Shown here one piece after another: positions 2,786 to 50,116 of a DNA stretch of 55,485 bases. This DNA is from Candidatus Fimenecus sp. Lineage in GTDB: Bacteria > Bacillota > Clostridia > Oscillospirales > Acutalibacteraceae. Each line of letters starts with the position of its first letter. The first letter of the stretch is position 1. The notes beneath the pieces were generated by a model that was not told the origin of the DNA, did no database searches, and worked only from the letters and a program-made list of their open reading frames with translations. The DNA lies in contig DAVZHM010000001.1 in NCBI GenBank assembly GCA_052273845.1, positions 1 to 55,485 of the forward strand, in the 5' to 3' direction. The position numbers were made by a program, and so were the translations under genes.

Positions 2786-3889
2786 TTATTTTCTTTGCTC
2801 GGGCGGCTTTTCGGTGATAAACACGCGAAACAGCGGCAGGCAGGAAGTAAAAAACTTTTTGTATGCCGCGCAGTAATCCGCACTTTGCTGTGTGCGTTTG
2901 CAACCGCCCGCACGGCAAATCGGATAGACTTTGCATTGCTTACAGCGGTCGGGCACGGGCAAACTTTCTTTGATAAAGTCGGTCGCCGTTTTGCTGTTTG
3001 CCATCGTGCGAAAATCCGTTTCCCGGATATTGCCGAGCAAATATTCATCGGTGCAGTAGAAGTCACACGGATAAATATTGCCGTTACTCTCCGATACAAA
3101 TTGGTGCGAACAATACCCCAAAATGCCGCATTGCTCGGTTTGTTGCCCCAAAAACAGCCGCACCCAGTTGTCAAACTGCCGCACGCTGATGTATTGCCCG
3201 CGCACATAATCTTTGACATACAAATTAAAGACCTTAATTAAGAAATTCGCGTACTGTTCGGGCGTCATATACAGTTCGCTTTCCTCGGTGGAGTCGAACG
3301 GACGCAAGCAAGGGATAAACTGCAAATAGCGAAATCCCTTTGCGCGGAAATACCGATAAATCCGTTCGCCGTTTTCGGCACAGTACCCTGTGAGCACGGT
3401 TAATATGTTGAACTCCGCCCCGTGCCGCCGCAAAATTTCCGCCGCGTTCAAGATTTGGTAAAACGAGTTTTGCCCCGAAGGCTTTTTGCGGAATTTATTG
3501 CCTTCCAAATCTCCGTCCAAACTCAAGCCCACCAAAAACTGATGGTCGGCGAAAAACTGCGCCCATTCATCGGTGATTTGTGTGCCGTTGGTTTGAATGG
3601 AATAAAAAACGGGACTGTTTTTGCGGTTGTATTGCTTGACCGTTTTAGTAAAATGCTCAAAAAACGGCAGACCGCAAAGCGTCGGTTCGCCACCTTGAAA
3701 GGCGAACGCAACGGGGTGCCCGTCGGCAAAGGCGAGTGCCTTTTTTATGAGAATTTCGGCGGTTTCGAGTGACATAGTGCCAAAACCGAGATGTTCCCTG
3801 TGCTCGGAAACATCTCGGTAGAAGCAGTATTCACACGAAAGATTGCAAAGGGACGACGCCGGTTTTATCATCAACGATAAACTTGGCAT
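2786..3889 (-). CDS. Anaerobic sulfatase-maturating enzyme (radical SAM/SPASM)
   Basis: The N-terminus MIKPASSLCNLSCEYCFY carries the CxxxCxxC radical SAM cluster. The C-terminus is Cys-rich and SPASM-like (CKQCKVYPICRAGGC). It lies next to a CxPxR sulfatase. Confidence 0.85.
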   Translation of the reverse strand: MPSLSLMIKPASSLCNLSCEYCFYRDVSEHREHLGFGTMSLETAEILIKKALAFADGHPVAFAFQGGEPTLCGLPFFEHFTKTVKQYNRKNSPVFYSIQTNGTQITDEWAQFFADHQFLVGLSLDGDLEGNKFRKKPSGQNSFYQILNAAEILRRHGAEFNILTVLTGYCAENGERIYRYFRAKGFRYLQFIPCLRPFDSTEESELYMTPEQYANFLIKVFNLYVKDYVRGQYISVRQFDNWVRLFLGQQTEQCGILGYCSHQFVSESNGNIYPCDFYCTDEYLLGNIRETDFRTMANSKTATDFIKESLPVPDRCKQCKVYPICRAGGCKRTQQSADYCAAYKKFFTSCLPLFRVFITEKPPEQRK

Positions 3890-6034: not shown

Positions 6035-6047
6035 GAATTTGCCGAAC
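6035..6047. repeat. Left copy of the 13-bp direct repeat GAATTTGCCGAAC (putative target-site duplication)
   Basis: It is identical to 50047-50059 and directly abuts the outer end of the left inverted repeat. Confidence 0.85.
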
Positions 6048-6075
6048 GGTGAATTAAAAAAATAACCTGACCCCC
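6048..6075. repeat. Left terminal inverted repeat (IRL) GGTGAATTAAAAAAATAACCTGACCCCC
   Basis: It matches the reverse complement of 50019-50046 at 26 of 28 positions; the mismatches are at positions 19-20. Confidence 0.85.
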
Positions 6076-6147
6076 CTACCCAATTTGCCATAATTCAAAA
6101 AAGATGTTAAAATGAATCAATTTTTGAGGATGATGGAGAACAGAAAA

Positions 6148-7227
6148 ATGGCGGAAACTCGTAATAAAAAATACAAGCAGATAAACGAAGCAGAAAGAGA
6201 ATTGATTGAGCGGCTTCTGAGAAATAACACACCCAAAAAACAAATTGCAAGAATGCTGAACCGCAGCATAACAACTATCCGTAAAGAAATAAAACGAGGC
6301 TCTGTTGAACAGAGAAAAGAAATCAAAACCACAAAAAAAGATGCAAATATTCCTTTATACAAAACCGAACTCGTCTATTTTGCTGATGTAGGTCAGCGTA
6401 TATATAAACAAAACCGTTCGCATTGCGGGCGAAAATGCAAAATCATTGAATGCCGTGATTTTTTAAATTATGTTGAACAACAAGTGAAGTCTGATAAGCT
6501 GTGGTCATTAGATGCAGCAGCAGGACACGCAAAAAAGTTGAATTTATTTGAGCAAACCGTTACAACGCAAACCTTATATAACTGGGTGGATCTCGGTTTA
6601 TGCAGTACAAGAAATATTGATTTACTCAAAAAAGTCGGATGGAAAACACATCAGAAAAAAGTCCGTGAACACAAAAAGTGTCTCGGGCGTTCAATCGATG
6701 AGCGTCCGGAAATAGTTGATTCCCGATTAGAATTCGGGCACTGGGAGGGCGACGGTATTGTCGGAAAAGACAGTAAAGGGCATTGGATTACTCTTATTGA
6801 GAGAAAAACGCGTATGGGATTTATTTTCAATGTTAAAGATAAGCAGGCGTGTCGGATTGTCGAAGTTGTTGACCGACTCGAGAGAATGTTCGGTGCGTTA
6901 TTCCCGCTCGTTTTCAAAACAATTACATTTGATAACGGTACAGAATTTTCAAGTTCTAATTTAATGGAAGGCAATCAAAGAACCATAATCTACTATGCGC
7001 ATCCATATTCCTCTTGGGAGCGGGGTTCTAACGAAAACTGGAACGGAATTATTCGCCGTTATTTTCCAAAGGGAACATCCTTTGATGATGTTCAAGATGA
7101 AGATTTACGCAGAATTCAGAATATGATTAACAATATGCCACGAAAAATGTTTAACTATAACAGTTCGAGAGAATTGTTTTCACAAGAATTACAAATATTG
7201 ATAGCATCGGCAACTGCGGTAGCATAA
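6148..7227 (+). CDS. IS30-family DDE transposase
   Basis: There is an N-terminal HTH (INEAERELIERLL, KKQIARMLNRSITTIRKEIKRG). The catalytic region shows HWEGD, FDNGTEF and YYAHPYSSWERGSNENWNGIIRRYFPKG. The ATG at 6148 is preceded by GGAGAA, whereas the ATG at 6112 has no SD. Confidence 0.9.
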   Translation: MAETRNKKYKQINEAERELIERLLRNNTPKKQIARMLNRSITTIRKEIKRGSVEQRKEIKTTKKDANIPLYKTELVYFADVGQRIYKQNRSHCGRKCKIIECRDFLNYVEQQVKSDKLWSLDAAAGHAKKLNLFEQTVTTQTLYNWVDLGLCSTRNIDLLKKVGWKTHQKKVREHKKCLGRSIDERPEIVDSRLEFGHWEGDGIVGKDSKGHWITLIERKTRMGFIFNVKDKQACRIVEVVDRLERMFGALFPLVFKTITFDNGTEFSSSNLMEGNQRTIIYYAHPYSSWERGSNENWNGIIRRYFPKGTSFDDVQDEDLRRIQNMINNMPRKMFNYNSSRELFSQELQILIASATAVA

Positions 7228-7258
7228 ACCCATCAAAAACAATTACACACGTTATTTA

Positions 7259-7291
7259 GAGCAATTACAATTTTGTGATTGCTCTTTTTTT
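7259..7291 (+). terminator. Intrinsic terminator after the transposase gene
   Basis: The hairpin is GAGCAATTAC-aatttt-GTGATTGCTC (9 of 10 bp), followed by seven T. Confidence 0.65.
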
Positions 7292-13425: not shown

Positions 13426-13467
13426 AAAATTCGCACATTTGTATATGCAAAAAATGTATGATAATAT
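13426..13467 (+). promoter_or_regulatory. Sigma-A-type promoter with a shared upstream box, driving the surface-protein operon
   Basis: It reads TTGTAT, 17 nt, TGaTAATAT (extended -10). The 16-mer AAAATTCGCACATTTG is also present at 49538-49553. The palindrome GATAATG-5-CATTATC lies at 13476-13494. Confidence 0.5.
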
Positions 13468-14832: not shown

Positions 14833-14867
14833 TCCATCAACGACCGCTTAAAAATCCATAATGCAAA

Positions 14868-14897
14868 AAGAGACTTGTTTTGACAAGTCTCTTTTTT
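14868..14897 (+). terminator. Intrinsic terminator
   Basis: The hairpin is AGAGACTTG-ttttga-CAAGTCTCT, followed by TTTTTT. Confidence 0.7.
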
Positions 14898-25463: not shown

Positions 25464-25497
25464 TCAAAAAAATCAGTCCCTTTCAGCAAAATTATAG

Positions 25498-25531
25498 GGT
25501 GGCGTTCTCAAAGTGGAACGCCACCTTTTTT
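25498..25531 (+). terminator. Intrinsic terminator ending the surface-protein operon
   Basis: The hairpin is GGTGGCGTTC-loop-GAACGCCACC, followed by TTTTTT. Confidence 0.8.
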
Positions 25532-26444: not shown

Positions 26445-29400
26445 ATGGCGAGAAAATACGATTTGATTTCCGAGCTCTATGACCGCACCTGCAAGACGGT
26501 TTCCGCTAATCCACAGAATTGGCAGGCGTTTTTACAGTCAGCTTGCCGAAACTATAAACTGCGTTTCGACGAGCAGATTCTTGTGTTTGCACAGAAACCA
26601 AATGCAAAAGCGGTTCTTGAAATTCAACGGTGGAACAGTAGTTTCGGAAGATGGGTAAACCGAGGAGCAAAAGGAATCGCCGTATTTGAAGATGCAGACA
26701 GGAGCAGACAGCGGCTCATATACTACTTTGATATTTCCGACACCCACGCGGGCCCACATTCCCGTCCTGTTCCTGTTTGGGAAATGAAGCCGGAGTATGA
26801 GGACGCTGTTATTGAAACTCTTGAAAGTAATTTTGGAGAAACGGAAAACAAGCGTGACCTTGCCAACGTCGTTCTGTGTGCCGCCGCAAACGCGGTCGAC
26901 GATAACATTACCGATTACACAAGTGATCTTTTAATATCAAGGATGGGTAGCCTTTTAGGGATGTTGGATAACAATACAGTTGTTTCAAATTTTCATAAAA
27001 CCGTAACCAATAGTGTGGCTTTTATGATAATGTCTCGACTTGGAATAGACACCTCCAGGTATTTTAGTTATGAAGATTTTAAGGATATTGTAAACTTTAA
27101 TACTACCGACACCTTAAACGCTCTCGGCTTTGCTACCGGTGATATTGCTGAAATGGGGCTTTCTGAAATATCTAAAACGGTTATGTCGTTTGAAAGGCAA
27201 AATCGCACATTTGCAGAATATAAAAATTCCGACTATAATATAGACGGAAATAAAAATACTGAAGGGAGTCCTAATTATGACAGAGAAAATAACCTATACA
27301 ATGCAGGGAGATTACAACCTTCCGAACTTGGAAATGCCCAACCAACCAGTGGCGGAAATGGGCAGATACGCTCGAATGAGGAAAGCATTTTTGAAGGAAC
27401 ACCACAAAGTTCTATATTACAATCTCCTGACGAGCTGCAAACTGAACGAACACTTAGCGGAGGTTCAGCAGACGGCAACCGAGATGGAGGAACGCTTAAT
27501 CAAAGAAATGGCGGAGAAAGAGGGCGTGACCGAACAGATGAAGGCGACGGATATGATGAAGTGGGTTCGCCTAATGAACAATCTGAGGAACTCGGCGCAG
27601 GAGATCGTGAAAGCGGAAGTAATCTTCGCTTAGATTGGTACGACCGTGAACACGAGGACAAAAGCCTTCCTTTCTTCGGTGGCGATGATACCATAAGAGA
27701 AATTCTTGATACGACACCCCACCTGAAAGCATCCAAAGACGAAATAAGAGCGTTCTTTGAAACCGTAGCCGATGACGATAAACGCACCGAGTATATCAAG
27801 AGTATTTTCAATAACGATTATACCGAAGTGATCTTGAGTGACGGTAGGCGTGTCGGCTACAAAACTTTTCAAAATGTTCTGCACCTTTGGGAAGGAAGTT
27901 ATCTTAGCCGTACCGCACAGAGTTATTATGATTGGGGCGTTATGGCCGATCACTTTGAAGCAATGCGACTTTTAGGTGAACTCTATGACACGGCAAAACC
28001 CCTACCCTCCATAGACGGACAAATGAGCTTAATACTCGACTACGAAGCAGAGGTTACAAAACCCTCTGCTTTTTCTTTTTCCCAAGAGATTATCGACCTT
28101 ATCCTTTGTAAAGGCGGTCAGGTCAGCGAGGGAAAATTCCGTATCTATGAGCAATTCCAAAAGAGTTTATCCAAAAAGGAAAATGTGGACTTCCTCAAAC
28201 ATGAATACGGTTGGGGTGGTTCATATCCTATCATTGTCGGTACGGGCATTGATGAAATGCACGATGCCAAAGGAATAAAACTCACAAAGCAAGTTAATGG
28301 CGAAAAAGTTAAAATCCTTTTGAATTGGAATCAGGTTGAAAATCGTATCTCTGAGCTTATCAAAATGGATAGATACCTGAACCCAAAGGAAAAGGAACTC
28401 TATCCTGCGTGGCTTGAGCAACACGAAATTCGCAGAGCCGAAGTCGCAGAGAAACGCAGAAAGCGAGAAATCCTTTCTACTGCACCCACCGACAAGAATG
28501 AGCCTGAAACGACAACCGAAAGGTACGAATATCATCTTGGCAACAAGGTGTATATTGGTGCAAGTGAGTATGAAATTCTGTCCTTTGACGATGACCGGGT
28601 AATGCTCTATGATACGCAGTTTCCGTTATTCAATAAGGAAATGAGTCGTGCAGAATTCGACCAAAAGGTGCAAGAAAACCCGATGAACGACCACTTAAAG
28701 GTAAAGGATTTTCCAGCCGAAGAAACCCCGGACAACACGAAGGTGAGAATATCTCTGGATAGCGGAAACGACCTTGTTCATTGGATATATTATAATCCCG
28801 ACGCAAATGCCGGAGGTCAGTATGTCTCAGGTGATTTAAGCTTCTCTGTTTTTGAGGGACTCATCGAGCAGTATGATATTGCGAATCATCCCGAAAACAC
28901 GGATAGGTTTGTTGCCGACCTTGAAGAAATGTCGGATCAGTTTTTGGCTGACATCAACACTCCGTTCTTTATGGAAGCGGAAAACGACTATGAGATGGAC
29001 TGCGACTATATTCAGTTCACACCCGAAAATATTCTCAAAATCCACAAGGATATTCAGCAATTTGAAACGGAACATCAAGCAGAACTTAACAGAATGGCTG
29101 GGCAGAATGAGCCTAACGCATTGCCGGTTTATGACCGTGAAGCAGAAATCCTCTATGATGTTCTTTCTGCGCTGAAAATTGATAATGTTGAGTTGACTTT
29201 CGACGGTGATAAGCTTGTTGCAACCGACAGTATGGACAACGAGTGGCACGGCAAGGAGTTTTATGAGTTCCTTGTAAAAGAAACCTTTGTGTTTGACGAT
29301 AACGGCAAAGTAGTGGGTATCGATGATGATTTGCTTAAAGACTTTACGGATCTGTCTGAACATAATGGGATACCCGTTAAGGATAACAGAGTTAAGCAGC

Positions 29401-36672: not shown

Positions 36673-36701
36673 GTAGGTAAAAACTAAATACACATTGTAT
36701 A

Positions 36702-36735
36702 AAGAGAAGTTTCGCTGCGAGACTTCTCTTTTTTG
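36702..36735 (+). terminator. Intrinsic terminator
   Basis: The hairpin is AGAGAAGT..TCGCtGCGA..ACTTCTCT, followed by TTTTT. Confidence 0.7.
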
Positions 36736-47851: not shown

Positions 47852-49399
47852 ATGGCAAAGGATATAAAGACACGGAAGAAACAGCCTAAGACAATCAAAA
47901 CTATGAAGGGAACGGTCAAGAACCTTGACCGTTCCCTTCGTGCCGGCAGAGATATAAAAGAAATATCTGAGAGGGTGCTTTCGCAGGATACTCCCGATAA
48001 TGCTCCTGCCGAACTGTTGCAATCTGGTGAACGCTGGGGTGCAGAATTTGCAGGACGCAAAACTACAAAGACCGCATATCGTTCTGCCCGCAGCGCTGTG
48101 TCCGTAAAACAGAGAACCTCCGCCGCGCGGGAAAGCTTCCAAACTGCAAAAGCAACTTTTAAAGAATCACGCTCTGCTATAAGGGCGGAAATCAAATCTG
48201 TTAAGACATCTGTAAAAACTGCACGAAACACGATAAAAACAGCAAACAGCGCAAGAAAAGCAGGATCTTCCGCTGCAAAAGGAGCAAGCACCGCCGCAAA
48301 GGGGTCTTTCCAAGCGGCAAAAGCAGTTGCGAAAACCACATTTTATGCTGCAAAGGTTACTGCAAAAGCGTTTGCGGCGGCGATTAAAACTGCTGTAGAA
48401 GCTATTTCGGCATCAGTAGAAGCAATCGGTGCGTTCCTTGCCGCAGGCGGCTGGATTGTTCTCGTTGCAATTTTGATTGTGGTTATACTTGCCGCCCTTT
48501 TCAGCTCGGCTTTCGGTATTCATTTTGCTGACGATGCGAATCCAAACGCGCTGTCAACGGTGCAACAAGAAATAAATCGGGAGTTTTCTGAAAAATTGAG
48601 CGAGCAAAAAGCGCTGTTACAGGGCTATGACCGAATCGTTGTTCGCCCTGCTCCATCTGTCACAAAGTGGAACGAAATCCTTGCTGTTTATTCCACCCGC
48701 GCGCAAAATGAAAACCTTGTACCCATTGAAATGAATGAACAAACTGAGTCACTTCTACGGGATACAATGTGGAATATGATTTCTTTTTCAGTTTCCTCCG
48801 AAACGGTAACCTCGGTTGAATCAGATGAAGCTGGGAACAGTATTACTGTTACAGAAGCCTATGGTGTAGTTACTGTGATGTATAAAAGCACAGAGGAAAT
48901 GGCTACGCTTTATCAATTTTCCGATGGTGACCGAGAGACGCTCTCTCAAGTGCTTTCTATGTACGCCGATTTTGGAGGGATAACCGTAGGCAACGCAGGA
49001 AACGGCAGATTGATAAATCCGTGTCCTGACGGACATTTTAACGGTAATGACTTTCCTGCCTATGCGGGAAGTGGAGAGTACCACGCGGGACGCGACATCT
49101 CTTGTCCCATTGGTACACCAATTTATGCGGCTGCGGACGGAACGGTTATACATATTAACGACCAAGCGGAGACTTATGGAAATCATATTATGATTTCGCA
49201 CAGCGATGAAATATACACCCTATATGCTCACTGTGATTCTTTGCTTGTATCAGTCGGACAAGATGTGAAACAAGGACAACAAATCGCTTGGAGTGGTGCG
49301 ACAGGCAATGTAACCGGTACTCATCTGCATTTTGAAGTCCGCGTCGGCGGTTCAAAATACCGCGTGAACAATGTTGATCCATTGGATTGGATCGCCTAA
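47852..49399 (+). CDS. Membrane-anchored M23-family peptidoglycan metallopeptidase (T4SS cell-wall hydrolase)
   Basis: HAGRDIS, GNHIMISH and THLHFEV are the M23 motifs. The N-terminal half is Ala/Lys-rich and contains a TM helix. Confidence 0.85.
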   Translation: MAKDIKTRKKQPKTIKTMKGTVKNLDRSLRAGRDIKEISERVLSQDTPDNAPAELLQSGERWGAEFAGRKTTKTAYRSARSAVSVKQRTSAARESFQTAKATFKESRSAIRAEIKSVKTSVKTARNTIKTANSARKAGSSAAKGASTAAKGSFQAAKAVAKTTFYAAKVTAKAFAAAIKTAVEAISASVEAIGAFLAAGGWIVLVAILIVVILAALFSSAFGIHFADDANPNALSTVQQEINREFSEKLSEQKALLQGYDRIVVRPAPSVTKWNEILAVYSTRAQNENLVPIEMNEQTESLLRDTMWNMISFSVSSETVTSVESDEAGNSITVTEAYGVVTVMYKSTEEMATLYQFSDGDRETLSQVLSMYADFGGITVGNAGNGRLINPCPDGHFNGNDFPAYAGSGEYHAGRDISCPIGTPIYAAADGTVIHINDQAETYGNHIMISHSDEIYTLYAHCDSLLVSVGQDVKQGQQIAWSGATGNVTGTHLHFEVRVGGSKYRVNNVDPLDWIA

Positions 49400-49400
49400 A

Positions 49401-49461
49401 GAAATTGGCATCTTAGCCGCAAGCTCGCTATGAGCGAGTTGTCGGCCGAGATGCCAATTTC
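49401..49461. repeat. 61-nt nested imperfect palindrome directly after the last T4SS gene
   Basis: GAAATTGGCATCT pairs with AGATGCCAATTTC (13 bp). Inner pairs are GCCG/CGGC and CTCGC/GCGAG. No T-tract follows directly; a weaker hairpin with TTTT follows at 49466-49488. Confidence 0.6.
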
Positions 49462-49537
49462 CAAAAGACTTGATACACAAGACTTTTTCACTCTACAAAA
49501 AATTGCTTTTTAGGAAAAAATCGTATTATGCAATTCA

Positions 49538-49579
49538 AAAATTCGCACATTTGCGATATACATTTGTATGTGATAAGAT
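49538..49579 (+). promoter_or_regulatory. Outward-facing sigma-A-type promoter, paralogous to the 13.4-kb promoter
   Basis: The shared box AAAATTCGCACATTTG is present. It then reads TTGCGA, 17 nt, TGaTAAGAT (extended -10). Confidence 0.5.
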
Positions 49580-49585
49580 ATATAT

Positions 49586-50038
49586 TGATGTAAGTAGTGA
49601 GATACTTATGTCGTTGCCAAACCTACCGGCGATGAGCAGAAATTGTTCTCTATTTACATCAGTTTATATCGAACCTTGACAACCGCATATCAAAGCAATG
49701 GTGACATTCCGCTGTAAACGAGCTGTTCCGAGCGCGCCGCCAAGACTGCCTGTTCTTATTTGAATACAAAACGCGTAAGGCTTCAGATGAAACCCTACGA
49801 ACGGAAAGGCACGAGCAGAAACATCGTGTTCGGATTTATAACGGTGACTCCGTTAGAGAGCGAAGACTTTACAGCAGGGACAATGATACTTCCTTCGGTC
49901 GTAGGTCGAGCGTGAACGAACCGTCGCAACCCGCGAGAACGGCTGCGAGAAACCCTCGCAGAGGAGATAAAACAATCCTATGAGGATGTCGCGTCAACAT
50001 CCCGCCGTTGTTTTTAACGGGGGTCAACTTATTTTTTT
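49586..50038 (+). ncRNA. Candidate ~450-nt structured non-coding transcript at the right end of the element (family unknown)
   Basis: No ORF of 60 aa or more lies within about 49680-50028 in any frame, even though this stretch is GC-richer than its surroundings. Several local hairpins are visible: CGAAC..CACGA-9-TCGTG-TTCG, AACGG-5-CCGTT, GCGAG-5-CTCGC and GGATGT-7-ACATCC. The terminal hairpin CCCGCCGTT-6-AACGGGGG with a T-run overlaps the IRR. Confidence 0.4.
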
Positions 50039-50046
50039 AATTCACC
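50019..50046. repeat. Right terminal inverted repeat (IRR)
   Basis: The plus strand reads GGGGGTCAACTTATTTTTTTAATTCACC. Its reverse complement matches IRL at 26 of 28 positions. Confidence 0.85.
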
Positions 50047-50059
50047 GAATTTGCCGAAC
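50047..50059. repeat. Right copy of the 13-bp direct repeat GAATTTGCCGAAC
   Basis: It is identical to 6035-6047 and directly abuts the outer end of the IRR. Confidence 0.85.
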
Positions 50060-50065
50060 TCGCAT

Positions 50066-50098
50066 ATAAAAAGCACCCGTCTTATAGGGGACGGGTGC
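50066..50098 (-). terminator. Intrinsic terminator of the hydrogenase operon
   Basis: On the minus strand the hairpin is GCACCCGTC-8-GACGGGTGC, followed by TTTTT. It lies 19 nt after the hydA stop. Confidence 0.8.
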
Positions 50099-50116
50099 TC
50101 CAATCGGTTTGTGCGA

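Follow-up and report, generated by a model that had tools for sequence, protein, structure and literature searches.

A pemK-family RNA homologous to Tn916 canT at the right end of an IS30-type integrative and conjugative element, and its probable role in antitermination

What does a mobile element keep in a terminal segment that holds no gene? The question is raised by an integrative and conjugative element (ICE) of ~44 kb with an IS30-family transposase, which fills positions 6048-50046 of a 55,485-nucleotide stretch of DNA from Candidatus Fimenecus sp. (contig DAVZHM010000001.1, positions 1 to 55,485; hereafter the window). An earlier note, made from the letters of the window, had pointed to about 650 bp without a gene between the last type IV secretion gene and the right terminal inverted repeat (IRR; 50019-50046), and had offered three roles for the GC-enriched, hairpin-rich transcript it saw there: a structured non-coding RNA of unknown family, a long attenuator-type leader, or a transposase-accessory RNA. 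We find that window positions 49551-50046 hold a conserved σA promoter and a non-coding structured transcript unit of ~460 nt that adjoins the IRR, that the RNA matches the Rfam family pemK, and that by sequence comparison the unit is homologous to the canT region of Tn916. We think it probable, by analogy with canT, that the unit is a cis-acting processive antiterminator RNA of the canT type, equipped with its own σA promoter and placed at the right end of an IS30-type ICE.

The segment is gene-free to the extent that had been claimed. The gene for an M23 peptidase stops at 49399 and the ICE at 50046, and the 647 bp in between hold no credible gene; open reading frames (ORFs) lying wholly inside 49586-50038 are all of 52 amino acids or fewer, and the G+C content, as the earlier note had remarked, rises, from 0.33-0.35 at 49400-49699 to 0.45-0.52 at 49600-50099. 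The + strand folds more stably than shuffled sequences do (z = -3.1), and the - strand, at z = -1.45, is unremarkable. The extended -10 promoter that had been proposed at 49551-49579 (+ strand) is present and conserved: it consists of a -35 element TTGCGA (49551-49556), a 17-nt spacer, TG at 49571-49572 and a -10 element TAAGAT (49574-49579). The -35 region and the -10 positions T-A-n-n-A-T are invariant in an alignment of nine sequences (alignment A2), and the same promoter was called in a related element (locus L032, 885-913). We infer that the RNA starts at about 49586-49587. We also note a near-palindrome, TCGCACATTTGCGA (49541-49556; ATCGCACATTTGCGAT in most relatives), which overlaps the -35 element; the 11-mer TCGCACATTTG has two further exact copies in the ICE, at 13431-13441 and 27203-27213, an excess over chance that is not significant once one mismatch is allowed. 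The near-palindrome and its 11-mer may be an operator. Directly 3' of the M23 peptidase gene lies a further hairpin (49401-49461; arms of 29 nt, 83% complementary), which no U-run follows.

A scan against Rfam, which the earlier note had proposed, places the RNA in a family. Positions 49880-49983 (+ strand) match RF02913 (pemK) at 39.1 bits, against a gathering score of 34.8, over model positions 1-61 of 61; the match comprises ACAAUGAUACUUCC, a variable hairpin with a 49-nt insertion, helix H13, GAGGAG and an AUG. All full-length homologues of the unit that were put to the pemK model score 42-54 bits. No other Rfam family matched in the unit, even at E-values of up to 10, and no tRNA was found there. 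The family carries the Rfam type label Cis-reg, and pemK is said to have been put forward by Weinberg and colleagues in 2017 as a bioinformatic candidate for a cis-regulatory RNA. The papers searched assign no function to pemK, and none of them links the motif to antitermination.

The one characterised relative of the RNA is canT of Tn916, a cis-acting, orientation-specific, processive antiterminator, most likely an RNA, which maps to the gap between orf8 and xis and is needed for transcripts from Porf7 to cross the circle joint and pass the terminators T1-T3 (Wirachman and Grossman 2024, PMC11658703). An active canT fragment of 452 bp spans 126 to 577 nt after the orf8 stop, and the inactivating mutation canT(S3) changes ATA to TGC at nt 283 after that stop (PMC11658703). 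canT remains active when promoters and terminators are heterologous, copes with three terminators in a row and acts with no added signal; it is active in a chromosomal reporter without conjugation, and in trans it neither complements nor interferes (PMC11658703). Its authors could derive no reliable structure, and their paper mentions neither pemK nor Rfam (PMC11658703). We compared the window with the copy of Tn916 on pCF10 (L170; orf8 stop at 2040, xis start at 2501), where the pemK model scores 55 bits at 2323-2423, within the orf8-xis gap, and where a profile of the window family finds 2156-2412 with E = 1.7e-19 (nhmmer; all our searches with the whole core used nhmmer profiles rather than a covariance model). 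The active fragment corresponds to L170 2166-2617 and covers the core of the RNA that the long-range helix P1 closes (see below), and the Tn916 RNA is able to form P1, H4/5, H7-H10, H12, H13 and H15. The S3 site corresponds to L170 2323-2325, which are bases 1-3 of the pemK consensus; the equivalent region of the window is ACA-AUGAUAC at 49880-49889. By these alignments, the pemK motif can be equated with canT, and the window holds a member in a new kind of host element. Upstream of canT, L170 also carries SQ2397 (RF03532, "Cis-regulator of HTH transcription factor"; 874-1103, 229.8 bits) between an orf9-like helix-turn-helix gene and orf7, and this RNA has no counterpart in the window.

The fold of the RNA is supported by covariation among homologous right ends. 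For 17 sequences aligned over the span between the inferred start and the end of the element (alignment A3), RNAalifold predicts 90 consensus pairs, and standard pairing is found in 97.2% of cells, compared with 36-46% when the partners are slid by 1-3 columns. Both sides have changed in 40 of the 90 pairs (10-14 in the slid controls), the covariation score is 0.386 (about 0.06 when slid), and none of 500 shuffles reaches the observed values. Because G-U pairs far outnumber A-C mismatches (127 versus 11) and the consensus energy is lower for the + strand (-67.9 kcal/mol) than for the - strand (-39.2 kcal/mol), the fold lies on the + strand. The proposal of a structured non-coding RNA that is read from the + strand and starts at the named promoter is supported. 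Among the individual stems that had been listed, AACGG/CCGTT (H12), GCGAG/CTCGC (H13) and GGATGT/ACATCC (H15) are upheld by covariation, whereas CGAAC/GTTCG around CACGA/TCGTG has no place in the conserved fold, its bases taking part in other helices (H7/H8) or in the conserved CGAGCAG junction.

The consensus structure falls into a 5' hairpin domain and a closed core. The 5' domain (49585-49662, + strand) is made of H1 (49585-49596 with 49650-49662) enclosing H2 (49611-49617 with 49629-49635), as given by RNAalifold and the pair counts; it is specific to the IS30-type ICE family, being absent from the relatives in Tn916, L038 and L049, and is probably a 5' stabiliser. A conserved single-stranded flank, ACCUUGACAACCGCAUA (49673-49689, + strand; superfamily consensus CUUUGAAAAnUGAAUA), appears both in A3 and in a broad alignment, and then comes the core (49693-50013, + strand; ~320 nt), which holds H4-H15 according to the pair counts on A3 and is closed by P1, a helix between 49693-49703 and 50003-50013. 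Conserved junctions within the core read GGUGACAUUCC, CGCCAnGAC, ACGAGCAG and GCGA, and CGAGCAG, CGCCAnGAC and AUAAUGAUAC are conserved stretches of the RNA. P1 is found throughout the family while its sequence varies everywhere. The broad superfamily alignment was too poor for pair counts, and P1 was tested there through the energies of cognate and non-cognate duplexes in 21 sequences, four of which proved on examination by hand to be mis-anchored. Cognate duplexes have a mean energy of -13.1 kcal/mol, non-cognate ones -6.6 kcal/mol, and in 15 of the 17 correctly anchored superfamily members, which are of unrelated sequence, the cognate partner ranks best.

The 3' end of the RNA runs into a hairpin, T (50001-50023, + strand), which competes with P1. 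Its 5' arm (50001-50009) reads CCCGCCGUU / CCCGCCGTT, and after a loop its 3' arm, AACGGGGG (50016-50023), is the inner end, or G-run, of the IRR. T is present, with compensatory changes, in all 15 full-length homologues, with ΔG of -12 to -17 kcal/mol; P1 has ΔG of -11 to -14.6 kcal/mol and shares bases 50003-50009 with T, and since the 5' arm of T thus overlaps the 3' strand of P1, the two are mutually exclusive. The earlier note had taken this hairpin for an intrinsic terminator built into the IRR. The hairpin itself is real, covaries and uses the inner G-run of the IRR as had been described, but the T7 run (50032-50038) starts 8 nt past the stem (8-9 nt in all homologues) and the intrinsic terminator scan did not call T; with its U-run so far beyond the stem, T is not a canonical intrinsic terminator. 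It may be a fail-safe or a regulatory switch.

Two further features of the core deserve mention. GAGGAG (49961-49966) is followed inside the core by an invariant AUG (49980-49982). A conserved peptide from AUG 49980 was considered and rejected: a 1-nt indel shifts the frame between subfamilies, and Tn916 has GUG at this place. The stop of the ORF varies in position and in the window falls outside the ICE. A fusion of the ORF into the transposase across joined ends was likewise rejected, there being stops in all frames within the left terminal inverted repeat (IRL). On the - strand, H11 (49774-49799) resembles an intrinsic terminator, a hairpin followed by CGUUUUGUAU, and could stop inward transcription from the host flank. 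An antisense RNA ending at H11 was discarded, as the G-U and A-C counts favour the + strand for H11 too.

The unit travels with the end of the element. We drew relatives from the match found by BLAST in a phage collection, from homologues of the M23 protein and their contigs, and from one pattern scan of metagenomes, in which about 9 of 28 hits matched neither the family nor pemK and look like chance. Whole-unit copies number more than 25, in eight lineages with mutual identities of 60-76%, and at every one of these loci the IRR adjoins the unit; homology spans the promoter to the final base of the IRR and then stops. DNA identity of the unit (64-94%) exceeds the amino-acid identity of the neighbouring M23 protein (46-76%), and in relatives a Fic gene or several kb of cargo (HipA) can separate the M23 gene from the unit. 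Because it is always at the IRR, better conserved than M23 and separable from it by cargo, the unit belongs to the element end. A decayed protein gene, one of the refuting cases that the earlier note had named, is ruled out, since no frame stays open in all the homologues and the lengths of most indels are not divisible by three. A BLAST search with the unit gave no match among plasmids and, among phages, a single unannotated faecal contig, which proved to be a fragment of an ICE; two pattern scans of viral contigs returned nothing, or chance matches in coding DNA only.

Distant members of the family lie on other kinds of mobile element. Two (L028, L038) come from Tn916-like elements, where a sigma-like gene precedes them and xis-int follows, and one lies upstream of parAB on a Cohnella plasmid (L049). 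We also fetched an unbiased set from IMG/VR by the 14-mer GGATAATGATACTT, which is uninformative on the upstream domain; the members found nevertheless have the upstream domain and P1 as well. They head operons on mobile elements, typically coming after a sigma-like gene of the orf7 type and before a serine recombinase, a PemK toxin, ParAB or phage structural genes. The window RNA resembles RF02913 in its full-length match, the conserved AUAAUGAUACUUCC, the same hairpins and the same GGAGG...CCUAUGA, but the Rfam model has 61 consensus positions and takes in only the 3' third of a P1-closed domain of ~260-330 nt in every instance examined. Because all members have the upstream domain, the model covers only the 3' third of the RNA. 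In six IMG/VR members from other subfamilies (L147, L154, L059, L162, L139 and L117) we observe a conserved element 3' of P1, made of GUUCC, a hairpin and then UUGAGAAUAAAUA; the window family has no such GUUCC element, and its RNA runs instead into hairpin T and the IRR.

The arrangement of the ends points to what such an RNA might do. In the integrated copy the RNA points out of the ICE. Two metagenome contigs of ~39 kb (L031 and L032) instead read unit, IRR, 2 bp, IRL, transposase promoter, transposase; the joints are IRR-CT-IRL in L032 (1356-1415) and IRR-TT-IRL in L031 (7452-7510), and the arrangement is that of a circular or tandem joined-end form. In these contigs the RNA lies directly upstream of, and co-oriented with, transposase-parA-parB, the position expected of a pemK-type cis-regulatory RNA. 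On inspection the joint itself showed no convincing -35/-10 pair that would make a promoter. Behind the transposase gene, before parA, a strong terminator with a 12-bp stem and a T7 run is predicted at 7258-7285 (+ strand; conserved in L032, 2586-2613), a candidate counterpart, by analogy, of the Tn916 insulator terminator T1. Further strong intrinsic terminators are predicted between genes of the co-directional ICE array at 14865-14896, 25496-25527 and 36701-36731 (all + strand); the stems of the predicted ICE terminators are of 12-14 bp and are followed by T-runs.

A mechanism can be proposed on this basis. In the integrated state the promoter and RNA would face outward, physically apart from the ICE genes. 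After excision, transcription from the promoter at 49551-49579 would produce the RNA, which, once folded, would remain on the elongating RNA polymerase and render it resistant to terminators. The polymerase would then pass the IRR-IRL joint, meet the transposase gene first, and go on through the terminator at 7258-7285 and the later ones, so that read-through might reach parAB, the DNA-processing genes and the type IV secretion genes, and expression of the ICE would be coupled to excision. The geometry fits the logic of Tn916, since a promoter and antiterminator sit at one end and genes behind an insulating terminator at the other, to be joined only by excision. The long attenuator-type leader of the earlier note thus finds support in so far as transcription would run over the IRR-IRL joint to the transposase gene, as the joined contigs and canT (PMC11658703) indicate; its attenuator logic is likely reversed, because the characterised relative, canT, suppresses terminators.

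Several points weigh against the antiterminator assignment. The function is carried over, by analogy, from one characterised homologue, and the pemK score of the window is only 4 bits over the threshold, a low margin that is due to the 49-nt insertion, common to the window and Tn916 canT. No sigma-like gene precedes the window RNA, unlike in Tn916. The transposase has a good promoter of its own (6085-6113) and other ICE genes may have internal promoters, so that read-through may not be needed; the RNA promoter, for its part, looks constitutive, and as long as the element is integrated, terminator-resistant polymerase would run from it into host DNA. Finally, hairpin T is conserved and excludes P1, yet has no counterpart in the published canT model, and the conserved GGAGG...AUG with its short variable ORF is left unaccounted for by antitermination.

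The most serious rival is a signal-responsive riboswitch or attenuator leader, in which a ligand or factor would bind the P1 core and P1 would decide whether T forms, gating read-through of the joint without any processive resistance. Two helices that share bases, both covary and have similar stabilities, as P1 and T do, are a hallmark of an expression platform, and the label Cis-reg that Rfam gives to pemK would suit such a leader. We nevertheless regard it as unlikely. T has no adjacent U-tract in any homologue, the run being 8-9 nt off, and the relatives in Tn916, L038 and L049 keep P1 without T; no known aptamer class was matched in Rfam; no real gene follows whose ribosome-binding site could be sequestered, the ORF behind the AUG being unconserved in frame and length; and canT acts without added signal on foreign promoters and terminators, even three in series (PMC11658703). 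An ICE RNA that acts in trans, whether as a small RNA or within a ribonucleoprotein, ending near the IRR and serving, for example, as a regulator of host or ICE mRNAs, would account for the unit's own promoter and its 5' and 3' hairpins, and the homologue on the Cohnella plasmid is indeed followed by two good terminators before parA. That members of the family consistently sit just in front of operons and read in the same direction as these, that no canonical terminator sets a 3' end in the window, and that canT neither complements nor interferes in trans (PMC11658703) make this a very improbable reading.

Covariation alone cannot separate an RNA from a single-stranded DNA (ssDNA) element, and a relaxase and a primase-like protein are among the products of this conjugative element, so that a single-strand origin, a priming site or an ssDNA promoter used in conjugation or rolling-circle replication has also to be weighed. 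If F-type and MOBP systems are a guide, transfer should involve the strand that is the template (-) for the co-directional genes, which counts against such an element, since the G-U and A-C counts put the fold on the + strand. A conserved σA promoter exactly at the 5' end of the fold, together with the action of canT as an RNA in a chromosomal reporter without conjugation (PMC11658703), leaves us giving this reading little credence. Less still can be given to the transposase-accessory or guide RNA that the earlier note had listed, akin to the IS110 bridge RNA or the omega RNA/reRNA of IS200/605. The unit does occupy the extreme end of an element that resembles a transposon, and in the circle the transposase gene comes right after it, but the transposase is an ordinary DDE enzyme of the IS30 family, and no TnpB, IscB or IS110 protein is found among the ICE proteins. 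More than 15 insertions have unrelated, AT-rich right flanks, differences between subfamilies at the tips of the inverted repeats (AATTCACC, AATCGGCC, AATTGACC and others) are, by inspection, not mirrored in the RNA, and the same RNA family stands beside tyrosine and serine recombinases, ParAB, a PemK toxin and phage structural genes. We therefore set the accessory RNA aside.

Antitermination of the canT type remains our preferred reading, and a broader version of it can be framed, which we hold to be conceivable but rather doubtful. In that version pemK and canT would form one class of ~300-nt polymerase-modifying RNAs, closed by P1, in ICEs, plasmids and phages of Firmicutes, and in the IS30-type ICEs the device would be gated by the competition of T with P1, a signal or correct co-transcriptional folding switching antitermination and, along with it, the expression of the entire excised element. 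If this were true, it would be the first regulated RNA-only processive antiterminator, and the present alignment would supply the first covariation-based structural model for canT.

Besides its transposase, the element encodes ParA, ParB, a MobA/VirD2 relaxase, a coupling protein, PrgI, VirB4 and the M23 peptidase, to which are added two SpaA-type adhesins, a methylase-helicase of 2945 amino acids, the primase-like protein and Fic; the + strand carries all of these genes, and the host DNA to the right of the ICE holds hydrogenase genes on the - strand. The transposase gene with its promoter (6085-7227, + strand) matches NCBIfam NF033563 at 244.8 bits (cut-off 80) and has the Pfam domains HTH_38 and rve; a promoter scan gives TTGCCA-17-TAAAAT at 6085-6113. 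Its ORF is listed from ATG 6112. The homologue in L032 has 359 amino acids and GGAG precedes ATG 6148, so that 6148 is probably the true start, in which case the promoter would give a short leader. The terminal repeats (6047-6075 and 50019-50047; 29 nt, 93% complementary) include the IRL (6048-6075), which the 2-bp spacer connects to the IRR when the element is circular or in tandem, and the IRR, at whose last base (50046) homology to all relatives halts; the right tip of the ICE reads ...AATTCACC. A 13-bp direct repeat, GAATTTGCCGAAC, flanks the integrated ICE (6035-6047 and 50047-50059). At no fewer than 7 of ~17 distinct insertion sites a good σA-type promoter in the same orientation lies just past the IRR in host DNA (at least L002 9118-9200, L016 7092-7170, L033 1050-1110, L034 4548-4620, L043 3082-3160, L045 5666-5710 and L021 1571-1600), which suggests that this ICE family prefers, in the manner of TnGBS, to insert upstream of promoters. 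With host promoters beyond the IRR, the outward-reading RNA promoter faces host genes.

What we add here is the equation of pemK with canT, a covariation-based structure for the class, and the competition between P1 and T. An orphan motif of Rfam thereby gains a likely function, processive antitermination, and canT, for which its authors could not derive a structure, gains a secondary structure supported by covariation. The same device is seen in an unrelated class of ICE, moved by an IS30-type DDE transposase, and also precedes recombinase, partition, toxin and phage structural operons; this suggests a general means by which Gram-positive mobile elements could make the expression of long operons depend on excision, yet keep themselves insulated against transcription of the host. 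To learn how such RNAs act on RNA polymerase, the competition of P1 with T and the conserved GGAGG-AUG offer handles.

IS30 forms joined-end (IR-IR) intermediates with a 2-bp spacer, in which the joint itself forms the transposase promoter, and ICEs of the ICE6013 type use an IS30-like transposase. The window ICE shares with these an IS30-family transposase and, in L031 and L032, the 2-bp spacer at the joint of the inverted repeats, but it has in addition a separate promoter and a 460-nt structured RNA inside its right end. The direct repeats of IS30-family elements are usually of 2-3 bp, far shorter than the 13 bp that flank the integrated copy in the window.

Among antiterminators, the bipartite conAn system of pLS20 and other Gram-positive conjugative plasmids offers a functional analogue with a similarly closed architecture. 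Its RNA, conAn2, is cis-acting, 260-600 nt long and overrides internal terminators (Miguel-Arribas et al. 2021, PMC8191782); a 20-bp long-range inverted repeat closes a central region of ~240 nt, the RNA heads a very long conjugation operon, and it needs the ConAn1 protein, encoded just upstream, for processivity (PMC8191782). Upstream of the window RNA lies the M23 peptidase gene (Fic in relatives) and no adjacent ConAn1 gene. An identity of the two RNAs can be rejected, since pLS20 3082-3466 was matched neither by the pemK model at the gathering level nor by the family profile. Two further antiterminators that are RNA-only, cis-acting and processive are EAR (eps-associated RNA) of Bacillus and the put RNA of phage HK022 (PMC11658703, PMC8191782); they are much smaller than the window RNA, unrelated to it in sequence and not tied to the excision state of a mobile element, and neither has an Rfam match in the window.

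The closest counterpart is canT. The two share the pemK motif, including the 49-nt insertion ...GUCCGAGCGUGAUAAAACCGUCGCAGGCAAUG..., and the same set of helices with P1; each is found close to the right end of its ICE and reads outward, and after excision both stand upstream of a co-directional array with intrinsic terminators. They differ in how the RNA is made and in what surrounds it. Tn916 makes its RNA as part of the Porf7 transcript, behind the sigma-like orf7/orf8, and xis-int separates that RNA from the joint, whereas the window RNA has its own σA promoter and an extra 5' hairpin domain, and adjoins the inverted repeat of a DDE (IS30-type) element. To the common fold the window family adds helix H11 and the hairpin T that competes with P1.

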